Source: a bacterium (lineage in GTDB: Bacteria > UBA8248). Taken from it: a stretch of 64,000 nucleotides of DNA. The notes beneath the pieces were generated by a model, which saw only the letters and a program-made list of their open reading frames with translations, did no database searches and was not told the DNA's origin. Position 1 is the first letter of the stretch; every line of letters starts with the position of its first letter. Location: the NCBI GenBank assembly GCA_965221165.1, contig CBDCRP010000003.1, forward strand, positions 1,056,001 through 1,120,000, in the 5' to 3' direction. The translations under genes were made by a program, and so were the position numbers. Shown in pieces: positions 2,843 through 38,597 of the stretch.

Positions 2843-2877
2843 AAACACCGCGGTCGTGAGGCCGCGGTGTTTTTTTT
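2843..2877 (+). terminator. Intrinsic terminator after ferredoxin
   Basis: AAACACCGCGGTC-GTGA-GGCCGCGGTGTTT plus T run. Confidence 0.85.
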
Positions 2878-2940
2878 GCCTGCGCCCAAGCGCTTTTTCA
2901 TTCACCCCACGGCCCAGAAACGGGGAATGCGGAGGGAGCT

Positions 2941-3081
2941 ATGATTTTGAACCGACCAGAAGAAGCAGGCCCGCACAGCGCGTGGTACAGCACGGCCGCC
3001 TTGGAAGACATGCGGCGAAAGGCGGCGACCGACGTACTGCGCGTGCTGCGGGGGGAAAAGCCGCGCTATCCCGTGAAATGA
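2941..3081 (+). pseudogene. C-terminal remnant of D-2-hydroxyacid dehydrogenase (CtBP-like)
   Basis: Hand translation MILNRPEEAGPHSAWYSTAALEDMRRKAATDVLRVLRGEKPRYPVK*; contains the PHxAWYS motif. Confidence 0.7.
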
Positions 3082-3108
3082 TTCATTCCATACTGGCGAC
3101 CAAGCGTA

Positions 3109-3957
3109 TTACTTTTCAATCGGGAACCCGACGACGCTCCCCCACTCCGTCCATGAGCCGTCATAAATCTTGACGTCTTCATAGCCCAGAAGATACCGCA
3201 TGGCGAACCAGACCAGACTGGCCCGGTGGCTCAGGCGTCAGTAGAGGACGAGTTCGATCTCATCATCGGGCGCGGCGCCTGCGCCGCCGAGAATCCGCGC
3301 AAGTTCCTCCCTGCTCTTGTAGGTGTCGTCCGCATTCAGCAGTTCGCGGAAAAACAGGTGCACCGCTCCCGGTATGCGCCCCGCGCGCTCGGCCCCGTGG
3401 TCGAAACCCGGCGGAGGCATCACCCGCTCGCCCCTGTATTCCTCAGGCGAGCGCACGTCCAGCAGCACCCTGCCCGGCTCGCCCAGTTTCGCGCGGATAT
3501 CCTCCCTGCCCACGCTTAAAATCTCCGCCTCACCCGGCGCGGGATGGTCGACGGCCACGGCATCCGGAGCCTCGCTCGAAACAGGCATCCCGTCCGCAAT
3601 CCATCTCGTCTTCGCGCCGTCCAGCAGCTTCAGATTTGTGAAGCCCGCCATCTTCAAGACCCAATACGCATAGGTTCCGAACTGCACGGGCTCGCCGTAT
3701 ATGACGATTTCATCATCCGGCCCGATGCCCATCCCGCCCAACTGCTCCGCCAATGCCTCGGGCGCGGCGAACGCGCGGTCCGTCTCGTGCCAGAGCACCC
3801 CTTTCCAGAACCACCAGTGCGCTCCGGGAATGTGGGCTTCACGGTAGGAGGCGTCGTCACTGGCTGATGAAACCTCAATGACGTGTAAATTCGGGCTCCC
3901 CAGGTGCTCGGAGAGCCACGCGGTAGAAACGAGCGCGGAACCATCTGTCGGAGTCAT
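3109..3957 (-). CDS. Two-domain rhodanese/sulfurtransferase (SseA/TST type), probable selenoprotein (UGA 3238-3240)
   Basis: [19 protein letters not shown]; frame continues past UGA as [46 protein letters not shown]. Confidence 0.9.
3208..3226 (-). promoter_or_regulatory. Candidate bacterial SECIS hairpin (rhodanese)
   Basis: CCGGGCC-AGUCU-GGUCUGG starting 11 nt after the UGA; G in apical loop. Confidence 0.65.
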
Positions 3958-4010
3958 ATTTCAATGCCCTCTCAATAAGAAAATGAACATACGAATCGTG
4001 TCACGGAAAA

Positions 4011-5435
4011 TCACCCGCCGAACATGGGTGGCTTCTTTTGCTGGATGTCCGGCGTGGCCTCCTCGAACGCATGGGACGCCTGCAGCACGCGGGCCTCCTC
4101 CCAGGGCGGCCCCACGAACTGGGCCGAAACCGGCAGGCCGTCTGTGCTGTAGCCGGACGGCGCGGCCATGGCCGGGAAACCGAACAGATTGTACGGGCCG
4201 GTCTGGGGCCTGCCGAGACCCGAGAAGGGGACCTCCTTCCCGTTCACCGTGCCCATCGTCGTCGCAATCGGCGCCGCGGGACAAGGATAGCCCGGCGCCA
4301 GGAGGATATCGATTTCACCAAACACTTTCTCCATCTCCCGGGTGAGCGTGCGCCGTTCCCGGTAGGCCTGCACGTAATCATCGAGCGTCACGCGGTTCAC
4401 CGATTCCAGGCGCTCGCGGACGTCGTCGCCGAACATTTCTGGATGTTCGCTGAACCGCTCGCGGTGAACCACCGCCAACTCGGCGCCCGAGATCGCCCCG
4501 CGCACCTTGTTCATCCGCTCGGCGTGGGGATAGCGCACATGAACGATGACGCCGCCGAGCGCCTTCATCGTCTCAATCGCGCCCTCAAAGCCTTTCTGCA
4601 CCGACTCGTCGTTTTCTGCGAAGTGAAGATCCTCACAAATTCCGAAGCGCATCCCTTGGACGCCCTCACCTATCAGGGCGCAGAAATCGGGCGTCTCGCG
4701 GTCCTCGGAACCGGGATCCGCCGGGTCGTAGCCCGCCATCGCCTGGAGCATGAGGCCGCAATCGCGCGCGCATCTCGCGAGCGGCCCGGCGTGGTCGAGG
4801 CTCGGAGAGTTCGGGAAAATGCCGCGAAGGCTCACGCGCCCGTAGGTGGGCTTCAGGCCCATAGTGCCGCATGCGCTCGCAGGCCCCCGGATGGAGCCGC
4901 CCGTGTCGGTCCCCACGGCCCCGGGACACATGAACGCCGCCACGGCTGCGCCCGAACCGCCGCTCGAACCGCCCGCCACCCTCTCGGTGTCCCAGGGGTT
5001 CCGGCACGGGCCGTAATGGGGGTTCACGGTGGTGGAGCCCGCCGCGAATTCGTGCGTGTTGCATTTCCCGATGATGACGGCGCCCGCCGCTTTCAGCTTT
5101 CTTACGCACTCCGCATCCTCGGCCGGAACATTTTTTTGGAAAAAACTCGAACCCTGCGTCGTCAGGACGCCTGCGGTATCGACGATGTCCTTGACGCCCA
5201 CGGGTATCCCGTGGAGCGGACCTCGGTAGTTTCCGCCCTGAATCTCATCCTCCACCCTTTTCGCGTCTTCCGCCGCCTCATCCGCGCACACGGTGATGAA
5301 AGCGTTGAGCTGGGGATTAAACGCCTCGACCTGGCGCAAATGCGCGTCCACCACCTCGCGCGGCGAGATTTCCTTGCTCTCGATCTGCCGGGCGAGCTCA
5401 TGTATCGAGAGAAAATTCAGTCCATCGGCGCTCAT
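4011..5435 (-). CDS. Amidase signature family protein
   Basis: GPLHGIPVGVKD, GGSSGGS, GTDTGGSIRGPA. Confidence 0.93.
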   Translation of the reverse strand: MSADGLNFLSIHELARQIESKEISPREVVDAHLRQVEAFNPQLNAFITVCADEAAEDAKRVEDEIQGGNYRGPLHGIPVGVKDIVDTAGVLTTQGSSFFQKNVPAEDAECVRKLKAAGAVIIGKCNTHEFAAGSTTVNPHYGPCRNPWDTERVAGGSSGGSGAAVAAFMCPGAVGTDTGGSIRGPASACGTMGLKPTYGRVSLRGIFPNSPSLDHAGPLARCARDCGLMLQAMAGYDPADPGSEDRETPDFCALIGEGVQGMRFGICEDLHFAENDESVQKGFEGAIETMKALGGVIVHVRYPHAERMNKVRGAISGAELAVVHRERFSEHPEMFGDDVRERLESVNRVTLDDYVQAYRERRTLTREMEKVFGEIDILLAPGYPCPAAPIATTMGTVNGKEVPFSGLGRPQTGPYNLFGFPAMAAPSGYSTDGLPVSAQFVGPPWEEARVLQASHAFEEATPDIQQKKPPMFGG

Positions 5436-5596
5436 CTTGACCTCCATTCCACCTGTGTGAATTTTATTTCGCTTCTATCGGGTTGATTGAACATCACCTT
5501 AGCATGACGGGGCGAGCTTCGCCCTCACCGGAGGAGATATCTTACTCTTCCAAGTCCAACGTGCACTTCGGAATCACTCCTCCCTTGGGGGTCAAA

Positions 5597-5836
5597 CCCG
5601 ACCGGTGAGGGAGGGTTTGTCCCGACCGGTGAGGGAGGGTTTGTCCCGACCGGTGAGGGAGGGTTTGTCCCGACCGGTGAGGGAGGGTTTGTCCCGACCG
5701 CGAAGGGAGGGTTTGTCCCGACCGCGAAGGGAGGGTTTGTCCCGACCGCGAAGGGAGGGTTTGTCCCGACCGCGAAGGGAGGGTTTGTCCCGACCGGTGA
5801 GGGAGGGTTTGTCCCGACCGCGAAGGGAGGATGTGT
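5597..5836 (+). repeat. 24-bp tandem repeat, 10 units in two variants
   Basis: CCCGACC(GGTGA/GCGAA)GGGAGGGTTTGT head-to-tail with no spacers; last unit degenerate. Confidence 0.97.
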
Positions 5837-5842
5837 TTCCGT

Positions 5843-6085
5843 GTAGGGGCCGCCCCTCCTCGGGACTGCCCCACCGTTCGCGAACCGCCCACGCATATAT
5901 GCGACCCTGGATTTTCCGCCTTCACGACGCGGGCCGGCCCCGAGGAGGGGTTCCGTCCCCTACGGAAAACCGCGAACCCCGTAGGGACAGGCCCCTGTGC
6001 CTGCCCGTCCCCGCCGTCCGGCAAGGGACAACTACAGGGGGCAGGTCGGACACACAGGTGGCAGACATATATGTCCGCCCCTACA
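5843..6085. repeat. GTAG-type REP/REPIN-like palindromic cluster
   Basis: GTAGGGGC...CCCCTAC and GTAGGGACAGGCCCCTGTGCCTGCCC...GCCCCTAC inverted pairs; largely shared with 16190-16311. Confidence 0.75.
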
Positions 6086-6257
6086 AACCCGTAAACCCGA
6101 CCGAGAAGGGAGACGATGCCCGGCCGGCGGCGCCTGATCCGGGCGTTGACCGGTTTTTTACATTTGGCTAACATATTTCGCAGGTGGAAGGATGCGCCAA
6201 TCGATCCGCAGCGGCGTATGCCGCCGCTTGCGGGTTCCGAATTCGTGGAGAGAGGAC

Positions 6258-36965: not shown

Positions 36966-37544
36966 TTATTCTGTAATGCCGCTCACAGAGATCGATTCAC
37001 CATTCAAGCTCAGAGTGCTTTTCAGCGGAACGGCGGCCGTCACCATTTGTTCGGCAAAGCATCCTTGCTTCGCATTCTTGATGACCGCCAATATCTTCTC
37101 CGCCGTTTCATCGGATTCCACTTCAAAGTGCGTACGCACCTCGCTACAGCCGGAATTTACCGTGCCCCTGAGGACAGAACCCTTTAAAAAGTAATCGAAA
37201 TCCACATGCACCTTGGCGTGTGTGAAGGACACTTTCATCATATGCGCGTACCGCGCAAGCTGGGTGAGGAGTCAGAATCCCACCCCCATGGCAATGTAGC
37301 AAAGCGGTTGAGGGTAGGAATCCTCCCCGCCGATGCGGGGCGGCTCATCGCAATACACCTCGAAATGTCTGTGCGTCCCCAGTTTGAGTTGGCCTTTTCC
37401 CTCTATCGTTTCAGTGTCGGCGGACATAGTGAAAGCATAGCCTTGCGTGGGGAGTTCGGGCTTATCTATCGCACGCTCACCTGGAGTGGCACTGTCTTTA
37501 CGCGGATCGAGAGGTTCCACTTGTTTTGTCTCCTTGGGTGTCAT
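36966..37544 (-). CDS. OsmC/Ohr-like protein, probable selenoprotein (UGA 37272-37274); start uncertain
   Basis: Two track ORFs share one frame: CDEPPRIGGEDSYPQPLCYIAMGVGF-U-LLTQLARYAHMMK...AKQGCFAEQ. Confidence 0.88.
37243..37257 (-). promoter_or_regulatory. Candidate bacterial SECIS hairpin (OsmC-like)
   Basis: UGCGCG-GUA-CGCGCA starting 14 nt after the UGA. Confidence 0.7.
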
Positions 37545-37637
37545 AAGAATGCAGAAGAAAAACGCTATTATGCACGCAAGGGCGGTGTAAGAGAACCGCT
37601 GGGGCACTCGTTTTTTTGCATGTAAAGGAGTTGTTTT

Positions 37638-38597
37638 GTGAACCGAATTGTCGTGCCAGATGACTATCCTTCCGTTTTCATGGGCAGCGCCGCCGAGACC
37701 CGACTTAGAGAAATCGGAGACGTAGAAATCCATACTTCAAACCCGCAGACACCCGAAGAATTACTCAGCCGCGTTTCTGGGGTGGATGGAATCATCAATA
37801 TCAGAGCCTTTTGCAAGTTCAACGCGGATTTTTTCTCTAATTGCAGCGCTCTCAAAATACTTTCGATTTGGGGAACAGGCACGGATCATGTCGATTTGAG
37901 CGCGGCAAAAAACGCAAACGTCATCGTCTCGAATACGCCGGGCGTGGCCGCCGTTTCCGTGGCGGAACACACCCTGGCCCTCATGATGGCGGCGGCGCGT
38001 CAAATACCCGGAAATGATTCCGCCATGCGGGCGGGCGAGTGGCCGCGTGGCCAGATGACACAATTGATCGGAAAAACGCTCGGCCTCATCGGACTGGGCG
38101 CCATCGGCCGGCAGACTGCCCGCATCGCCGCCGGCATCGGGATGAAGCTCATCGCCTGGACATTTCATCCAGACGATGATTTCGCCGCCGAGGTAGGGCT
38201 GGAGTTTGTCGATTTGAACACTCTGTATGAACGGGCCAATGTCGTTTCGATACACGTGCGTCAAACAGTGGATACCATGGGGATGATCGATGCCGAGGCG
38301 TTCTCCCGCATGGGCCCAAACACCATTTTGGTGAACACCGCCCGGGGACCTATCGTGGAAGAAAAGGCGCTCATATCGGCTTTGGAAAATGGGACTTTGG
38401 CTGCGGCGGGTCTCGACGTATTTGACCAGGAACCTCTGCCGACTAACCATCCATTGGGAAAATTAAAAAATATAGTTCTCTCCCCGCATAATGCGGGCAT
38501 CACGCCCGAGGTAACGGAGGCAGGACTTTTGATGTCGGTGGAAAACATCGCCGCTGCTCTCTCGGGAATTCCACAAAACGTGGTGTATTCATCATGA
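37638..38597 (+). CDS. D-2-hydroxyacid/phosphoglycerate dehydrogenase family
   Basis: GLIGLGAIG, VNTARG, GLDVFDQEP, SPHNAG. Confidence 0.93.
   Translation: MNRIVVPDDYPSVFMGSAAETRLREIGDVEIHTSNPQTPEELLSRVSGVDGIINIRAFCKFNADFFSNCSALKILSIWGTGTDHVDLSAAKNANVIVSNTPGVAAVSVAEHTLALMMAAARQIPGNDSAMRAGEWPRGQMTQLIGKTLGLIGLGAIGRQTARIAAGIGMKLIAWTFHPDDDFAAEVGLEFVDLNTLYERANVVSIHVRQTVDTMGMIDAEAFSRMGPNTILVNTARGPIVEEKALISALENGTLAAAGLDVFDQEPLPTNHPLGKLKNIVLSPHNAGITPEVTEAGLLMSVENIAAALSGIPQNVVYSS

Follow-up and report, generated by a model that had tools for sequence, protein, structure and literature searches.

Rhodanese-type sulfurtransferases with a selenocysteine (Sec) residue have been predicted in selenoproteome surveys since 2005. 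Three sequences were listed as 'Rhodanese-related sulfurtransferase, COG2897' in the Sargasso Sea survey of that year (PMC1088965), three as 'Sulfurtransferase COG2897' in the Olavius symbionts in 2007 (PMC1976440) and one under the same name in the Global Ocean Sampling (GOS) set of 2008 (PMC2398784), and the table of a 2026 review lists five rhodanese selenoprotein forms (PMC13188914). The COG2897 proteins are of the two-domain SseA/COG2897 type, with Sec at the catalytic-Cys column of the C-terminal domain and the hairpin of the selenocysteine insertion sequence (SECIS) directly behind it, inside the open reading frame (ORF). Here we describe a gene of the same design on the minus strand of a bacterial genome of the GTDB lineage UBA8248, at positions 3109..3957 of a stretch of 64,000 nucleotides (assembly GCA_965221165.1, contig CBDCRP010000003.1, positions 1,056,001 to 1,120,000), which we call the window; like the COG2897 proteins, it is known from sequence only. 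The original prediction for this DNA had described a rhodanese gene interrupted by UGA, of a kind already predicted in such surveys, and both statements held, with all elements of the gene found in the sequence. What appears particular here is a separate Cys-to-Sec switch, of the age of the genus, in the subfamily of rhodaneses whose loop reads CRLSHR.

The forms listed in the review table (PMC13188914) differ from the present gene to varying degrees. The COG2897 'form 4' (representative MCY3690685.1) has the motif UxxG, whereas the loop here is U-R-L-S (UxxS), so that on the listed motif, the only basis of this comparison, the gene does not belong to form 4; the U-Q-T-G of a second Sec-rhodanese in the same genome, described below, does fit UxxG. 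Since the UxxG form fits this paralogue and not the present gene, the latter seems to have changed from Cys to Sec independently, within a different subfamily. The listed 'form 1' (PF00581, UxxS, representative WP_010941598.1) shares both the motif class and the Pfam family with the present gene, as far as the table entry goes, and were form 1 a two-domain protein of the CRLSHR type, it would just take in the present gene as one more member. The 'form 3' model, NF041203 (rhodanese_LYCAU (seleno)protein), shows weak local similarity to the C-terminal domain, with 37.5 bits against a cut-off of 115, and describes a single domain of 126 positions with a CxU motif, whereas the present protein has two domains and L-Y-U, with no Cys two residues before U.

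The gene and its predicted product

Under translation table 11, the ORF 3957..3238 (minus strand, as for all features of this gene) encodes 239 amino acids and ends in ELVLY followed by TGA. When this TGA (3240..3238) is read through, the frame continues for 42 more codons to a TAA terminator at 3111..3109; the whole frame, 3957..3109, thus comprises 282 codons with a single in-frame TGA, and the recoded position is residue 240. The extension had been drawn correctly in the original prediction, in its coordinates as well as in its peptide strings, including the YDGSWTEW motif. A GAGAGGG sequence 9 nt upstream of the ATG (3967..3973), noted by inspection, may act as a Shine-Dalgarno-like element. 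The read-through translation, together with the Pfam, phmmer, AlphaFold2 and orthologue comparisons presented below, suggests that 3109..3957 is a complete gene for a two-domain rhodanese-type sulfurtransferase with Sec at residue 240 (U240), and we put the probability that this is a genuine selenoprotein gene, its Sec nucleophile decoded from UGA via SelB and a downstream hairpin, at roughly 0.88.

Pfam PF00581 matched the read-through protein with 105.5 bits in two stretches, the better of which (residues 153-273; 3139..3501) is the C-terminal catalytic domain, with the loop U-R-L-S-H-R aligned with CRIAER of 1uar and CRIGER of 3aax and 3hwi. The N-terminal domain (residues 8-125; 3583..3936) is non-catalytic: when the two domains were compared by BLASTP (E 3e-12), VIYGEPVQ aligned with VLYURLSH, which places Gly88 opposite residue 240. 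Tandem rhodanese folds were likewise apparent in an AlphaFold2 model built from a 15-sequence alignment (mean predicted local distance difference test score, pLDDT, 84.1; predicted template modelling score, pTM, 0.87), which Foldseek superposed on 1uar with template modelling (TM) scores of 0.84/0.86 over 279 columns. A nucleophile thus opens the six-residue loop of the C-terminal domain and none is found in the N-terminal domain, but it is a predicted Sec in place of Cys.

The best phmmer match in the PDB was 1uar (E 2e-59, residues 8-282). This Thermus thermophilus protein and the Mycobacterium tuberculosis proteins CysA2/CysA3 (3HWI, 3AAX, 3AAY) and SseA (3HZU) matched residues 8-282 with E values from 2e-59 to 1.5e-50 and resembled the model with Foldseek TM scores of 0.83-0.88 at 36-38% identity, with the catalytic loop aligned. 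All have a Cys nucleophile in loops reading YCRIAER or YCRIGER and none is a selenoprotein, whereas the loop here reads Y-U-RLSHR. Escherichia coli SseA (1urh) was found only at E 1e-22. None of the NCBIfam models was passed by the read-through protein, and an assignment to the 3-mercaptopyruvate sulfurtransferases (NF008557 / PRK11493) was rejected at 99 bits against a cut-off of 250. Because the nearest solved relatives are of the thiosulfate sulfurtransferase (TST) type, with the loop CRI[AG]ER, and no NCBIfam model was passed, we classify the protein, by sequence comparison, as a TST-type two-domain rhodanese (PF00581 twice; COG2897, CysA/SseA type) of the subfamily whose Cys members carry the loop CRLSHR.

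Conservation of the UGA, of the hairpin and of the frame beyond

The genome of the window, G000 (3 contigs, 3.69 Mb), contains the complete Sec pathway that the original prediction depended on. The tRNA-Sec gene (selC) scored 75.9 bits, where the gathering score is 47, and its anticodon was given as tca by ARAGORN; selA (564 bits) and selB (384 bits), separated by about 1 kb, have no internal stops, and selD (330 bits) has an in-frame TGA of its own. All four were above their curated cut-offs. A global reassignment of TGA was considered and rejected, since the neighbouring amidase gene and 9 of 21 orthologues of the rhodanese gene end in TGA and neither selA nor selB has an internal stop.

The genus is represented by 22 other genomes, 20 of which have a full-length orthologue that is 76-91% identical and has exactly one in-frame TGA. 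In one of the remaining two (G003) the gene lies in two pieces on separate contigs, of which the C-terminal piece has the TGA, and the other (G017, 79% complete) has only a 36-codon fragment of its end. The internal codon, at 3238..3240 in the window, is therefore TGA in all 21 full-length genes, that of G000 included, and in each it is followed by C. Among 51 genomes of the phylum the TGA form was restricted to this genus; the other genera had stop-free homologues at 48-63% identity, and a partial second copy in one genome (G044) carries TAG. In the nine orthologues extracted from sister genera the column held TGC without exception (YCRLSHRAT), in register with the loop Cys of 1uar, 3aax and 3hwi, which places the UGA at the active-site Cys position, as had been proposed. 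A wider scan covered one genome per prokaryotic species, and among the best 80 of at least 572 confirmed loci three had TGA, at 76-88% identity and therefore of the same genus, and the other 77, all outside the genus, had Cys. The alternation anticipated in the original prediction is thus clean, with TGA inside the genus as against Cys in all 86 relatives examined outside it (9 from sister genera and 77 from elsewhere). An in-frame UGA that aligns with Cys in homologues and is kept among orthologues is the pattern expected of a selenoprotein.

These Cys orthologues, with the loop C-R-L-S-H-R, are annotated as 'sulfurtransferase' or 'thiosulfate/3-mercaptopyruvate sulfurtransferase' and occur in sister genera, Alphaproteobacteria, Dehalococcoidia/SAR202, Rokubacteria, Burkholderiales and others. 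At 48-65% full-length identity they share their length, their loop and a 10-residue C-terminal motif with the Sec gene, but their catalytic codon is TGC rather than TGA, a Thr codon (ACC/ACG) takes the place of the Ser-AGU of the Sec genes, and no amidase gene lies nearby. The public gene calls show the same division: of the best 120 matches in the protein database, 20 were unnamed proteins of 237-239 amino acids, cut at the TGA (73-89% identity, 85% query coverage), and the remaining 100 (at most 65% identity, 91-100% coverage) were called sulfurtransferases wherever they were named.

Downstream of the UGA, the sequence CCGGGCC-AGUCU-GGUCUGG (3226..3208) can form a hairpin whose loop lies 18 nt past the UGA, as had been described, or 19 nt past it if pairing of the flanking A and U reduces the loop to the triloop GUC. 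In the minimum free energy (MFE) fold this predicted upper SECIS hairpin, ACCGGGCCA / GUC / UGGUCUGGU (3207..3227), has 9 bp including two G-U pairs, or 7 bp with the loop AGUCU. It lies within a 30-nt block (codons 244-253; 3199..3228) that begins 9 nt past the UGA and in which every nucleotide, synonymous sites included, is invariant in the 21 Sec genes; all nine upper-stem pairs are accordingly constant. This is the longest invariant run of the gene, the next being 14 nt. All 8 degenerate codons of the block were constant, whereas 107 of the 126 degenerate codons for invariant residues elsewhere in the gene varied, and the naive probability of such invariance, which takes columns as independent and ignores relatedness, is about 3e-7. 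The same ten codons showed ordinary synonymous variation in the nine sister-genus genes with TGC (CAC/CAT, CGC/CGG/CGT/AGG, GCC/GCG/GCT, CTC/CTG, TTC/TTT and others). Since the TGA is kept in G000 and its 20 orthologues and the hairpin block is invariant in all 21 genes, UGA and hairpin together appear to be more than a chance coincidence.

Bacterial SECIS elements are described as stem-loops that lie directly behind the UGA and have G in a small apical loop (PMC1088965), and the 9-bp stem found here bears its GUC loop at 19 nt. At two other UGA sites of the genome, selD has a 6-bp GC-rich stem with a GGA loop at 17 nt and the paralogous Sec-rhodanese a GGC loop, also at 17 nt. Counted from C3226, the present hairpin starts 11 nt past the UGA. 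The minimal upper stem-loop of E. coli fdhF is separated from its UGA by 11 nt as well.

A conserved hairpin behind a UGA could also serve read-through without Sec, in which a near-cognate tRNA would insert Trp, Cys or Arg and the hairpin would be a general stimulator of read-through or a ribosome pause site. UGA-C is a weak termination context, and the C that follows the UGA in all 21 genes would suit such decoding, as would the finding of no covariation that might tie the hairpin to SelB. We nevertheless consider this explanation improbable. The full Sec pathway is encoded in the genome, with selD itself using UGA; the position and size of the hairpin and its small loop with G first match the two other Sec sites as well as the bacterial SECIS description (PMC1088965); and the codon stands in for Cys, in a classic Sec/Cys pair. 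Moreover, a Trp or Arg nucleophile would yield a dead enzyme, which is hard to square with the strong purifying selection on the gene.

This selection extends beyond the UGA. Over the 21 full-length genes, the mean pairwise ratio of nonsynonymous to synonymous substitution rates (dN/dS) was 0.056 for the 42 codons after the TGA, compared with 0.18 over codons 2-140 and 0.10 over codons 169-223, and codons 241-243, which follow the TGA directly and precede any possible restart codon, showed synonymous changes only. Nucleotide identity was 0.85 over the final 27 nt ahead of the terminator and dropped to 0.30 over the 27 nt that follow it. The terminator itself varies among the 21 genes (6 TAA, 6 TAG and 9 TGA) and the internal codon is always TGA, which indicates that TGA still terminates translation here and that only the internal stop is locked to the codon that Sec can decode. 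Purifying selection on the frame downstream of a UGA is a further property expected of a selenoprotein gene, and it is difficult to reconcile with the view that the TGA is a true stop. On that view the product would be a rhodanese-like protein of 239 amino acids, decaying or repurposed, perhaps accompanied by a separate small peptide encoded downstream. The 237-239-residue proteins reported by public gene callers for 20 of the best 120 matches would agree with it, and so would the use of TGA as a terminator in the lineage, at the amidase gene and at 9 of the 21 orthologue ends. But the dN/dS after the TGA is below that of the rest of the gene, conservation collapses only past the second stop, the three codons ahead of any restart change only synonymously, the internal stop is never TAA or TAG, and the part lost would include the catalytic loop as well as YDGSWTEW, a strand that the fold requires; termination at the TGA is in our view very unlikely. 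That the TGA is an error of sequencing or assembly, or a nonsense mutation confined to one strain that marks a very recent pseudogene, has nothing in its favour beyond the bare stop codon in one assembly; this reading is already refuted by the recurrence of the same TGA in 20 other full-length orthologues from separately and independently assembled species-level genomes, in one split copy and in the three loci of the wider scan. Each of the three findings that the original prediction had named as grounds for its rejection was looked for, and none of them turned up.

Several observations weigh against the selenoprotein interpretation, or at least temper it. The 21 genomes are close kin, so that counts across them are not independent. 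No covariation was found in the stem: of its 16 predicted pairs, 11 are constant and not one is altered in both partners, and a stem that never varies can show none. Four pairs in the lower stem of the MFE fold fail to form in 3-5 of 12 distinct sequences, and therefore only the upper hairpin is claimed. The folding energy was unremarkable for the GC-rich composition (z = -1.27, with 26 of 200 shuffles folding at least as well), and an Rfam scan of 2900-4100 with E up to 10 returned nothing resembling a SECIS, only two chance-level matches (petD intron and snoRNA sR14). The last 13 residues of the AlphaFold2 model had a pLDDT below 50. Finally, 12 diverse Cys-form loci had no consistent immediate neighbours and offered no functional clue.

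If the gene is indeed a selenoprotein gene, as we favour, its product would be a cytoplasmic two-domain rhodanese of the thiosulfate sulfurtransferase type. The UGA at codon 240 would be decoded by Sec-tRNA(Sec) delivered by SelB, which would itself be recruited by the hairpin 11-31 nt downstream within the coding sequence, with its GC-rich 9-bp stem and an apical loop containing G-U. The resulting enzyme of 282 amino acids would follow a ping-pong mechanism as in Cys rhodaneses, in which the active-site selenolate would take sulfane sulfur (or selenium) from a donor such as thiosulfate to form enzyme-Se-S(-) and then hand the atom to a thiophilic acceptor. The predicted enzyme might even handle selenium itself, through an E-Se-Se(-) intermediate.

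Neighbouring genes and other selenoprotein genes

The gene directly upstream, on the same strand at 4011..5447, encodes an amidase-signature enzyme of 478 amino acids (Pfam PF01425, 393 bits) that ends in a TGA at 4013..4011, and we mention it as context, with no claim of a functional link. It had been suggested that the two genes are co-transcribed across a gap of about 50 bp. The gap measures 53 nt, and a simple scan of its minus strand found neither a terminator-like nor a promoter-like site, which is compatible with the suggestion; across the genus, the amidase gene lies upstream at 19 of 20 loci, but the spacer measures anything between about 40 and 1165 nt. Co-transcription is thus possible, judging from the gene order. 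No amidase gene was found beside any of the 86 Cys-form loci within flanks of 1.5-3 kb.

Among the 12 diverse Cys-form loci mentioned above, two from Actinomycetota (L108 and L109) have a gene of the metallo-beta-lactamase fold directly upstream of the CRLSHR-type rhodanese, and the other ten do not; the arrangement resembles that of persulfide dioxygenase-rhodanese pairs.

On the other side of the rhodanese gene, a ferredoxin gene (2514-2825) is followed immediately by a strong 13-bp GC-rich hairpin with a T-run (2843-2872, plus strand), the best terminator-like site of the region, and the length of the spacer between the ferredoxin and rhodanese genes differs between members of the genus, the extremes being about 120 nt and about 1.1 kb. 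A 46-codon ORF lies in this spacer at 2941-3081 on the plus strand (…AALEDMRRKAATDVLRVLRGEKPRYPVK). It resembles the C terminus of D-2-hydroxyacid dehydrogenases and may be a gene remnant. The 75-amino-acid translation of 2856-3081, which is in a different reading frame from this ORF, gave no Pfam match; the ORF itself was not part of that search. Tandem short repeats just upstream of the amidase gene (5525-6174) give rise to long repetitive ORFs in several frames on both strands, with units such as GTNPPFAV/GTNPPSPV and REGLSRPV, and similar PxxK/CAKKNP repeats occur at 104-346.

Further rhodanese paralogues are encoded outside the window. The second Sec-rhodanese, at G000:C2:70598-71377 (plus strand), is 32% identical to the present gene and has the loop U-Q-T-G-Y-R; its TGA is kept across the genus and in a sister genus (G023). 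A near-identical copy at G000:C3:37098-37691 (minus strand), whose N-terminal part is interrupted by stops, looks like a broken duplicate (the two are loci L026 and L027). A third paralogue, at G000 C3:2075717-2076502, has Cys (C-Q-G-G-Y-R).

The window itself holds another selenoprotein gene that had not been flagged, at 36969-37733 on the minus strand with a TGA at 37274..37272. Its product is OsmC-like: PF02566 matched residues 136-238, a stretch that includes the U of G-F-U-L-L-T (UxxT). A hairpin, UGCGCG/GUA/CGCGCA, lies 20 nt past the UGA, and translation probably starts further downstream than at the codon used here. The TGA of this gene is kept in the matches of all 25 genomes that have one, among 31 related genomes examined, with about three paralogues per genome. 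OsmC-like proteins are a known selenoprotein family in the 2026 review table (PMC13188914).

The BSepDB paper (PMC13326102) places metagenome-assembled genomes (MAGs) labelled Nitrospinota, corresponding to the GTDB phylum UBA8248, among the bacteria with most selenoprotein genes, 48-54. In one part of its supplement the words 'rhodanese' and 'UBA8248' do not occur, and its tblastn Sec/TGA pipeline would probably catch the present gene.

Origin and significance of the Sec form

To place the Sec genes among their Cys relatives, we built a quick IQ-TREE phylogeny in which X masked the Sec column, support being given only as the Shimodaira-Hasegawa-like approximate likelihood ratio (SH-aLRT); of 105 proteins extracted, the 99 distinct ones were included. 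The 21 Sec genes formed one clade with an SH-aLRT of 100 and a stem length of 0.44, and the Sec/Cys label changed once on the tree. This clade was nested among the Cys forms of the same bacterial family, with the Cys forms of other phyla further out. Because the Sec genes are one clade inside the Cys forms, and following the reasoning of Zhang et al. on Cys/Sec conversions (PMC1794560), the tree points to a single conversion of an ancestral Cys gene to the Sec form, on the stem branch of the genus.

Few changes separate the UGA and hairpin from the corresponding codons of the nearest Cys genes: TGC to TGA at the catalytic codon, CGC to CGG and CTC to CTG, each of which closes one pair of the stem, and Thr-ACC to Ser-AGU, which gives the G-U of the loop. 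As a list of steps this is a reconstruction that we infer from extant sequences. It leads us to favour, by a little over even odds, an independent switch of the age of the genus in the nucleophile of a CysA/SseA-type (CRLSHR) rhodanese, in which a SECIS would have been built in place from existing codons by very few substitutions. The sister genera retain the Cys state, as it would have been before the switch, at about 60% identity. The feature is of modest interest as an apparently recent, lineage-restricted switch from Cys to Sec whose ancestral state is preserved in sister genera.

The gene also suggests that the sulfur and selenium metabolism of this lineage is under-annotated, since public gene calls cut it at 237-239 amino acids and leave it unnamed. 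Characterised selenoenzymes are almost all oxidoreductases, and a Sec-rhodanese would instead use selenium for atom transfer through an Se-S intermediate; the cited survey and review literature yielded no biochemical study of such an enzyme. With its close Cys orthologues and minimal set of changes, the present gene would form a convenient natural pair in which to study the catalytic benefit of Sec and the minimal needs of a bacterial SECIS. If the interpretation is true, the Sec and Cys forms would constitute a natural before-and-after system for the birth of a SECIS inside a coding sequence, and the same pair would bear on what selenium gains for persulfide (E-Se-S-) chemistry and on the use of Sec outside the oxidoreductases.

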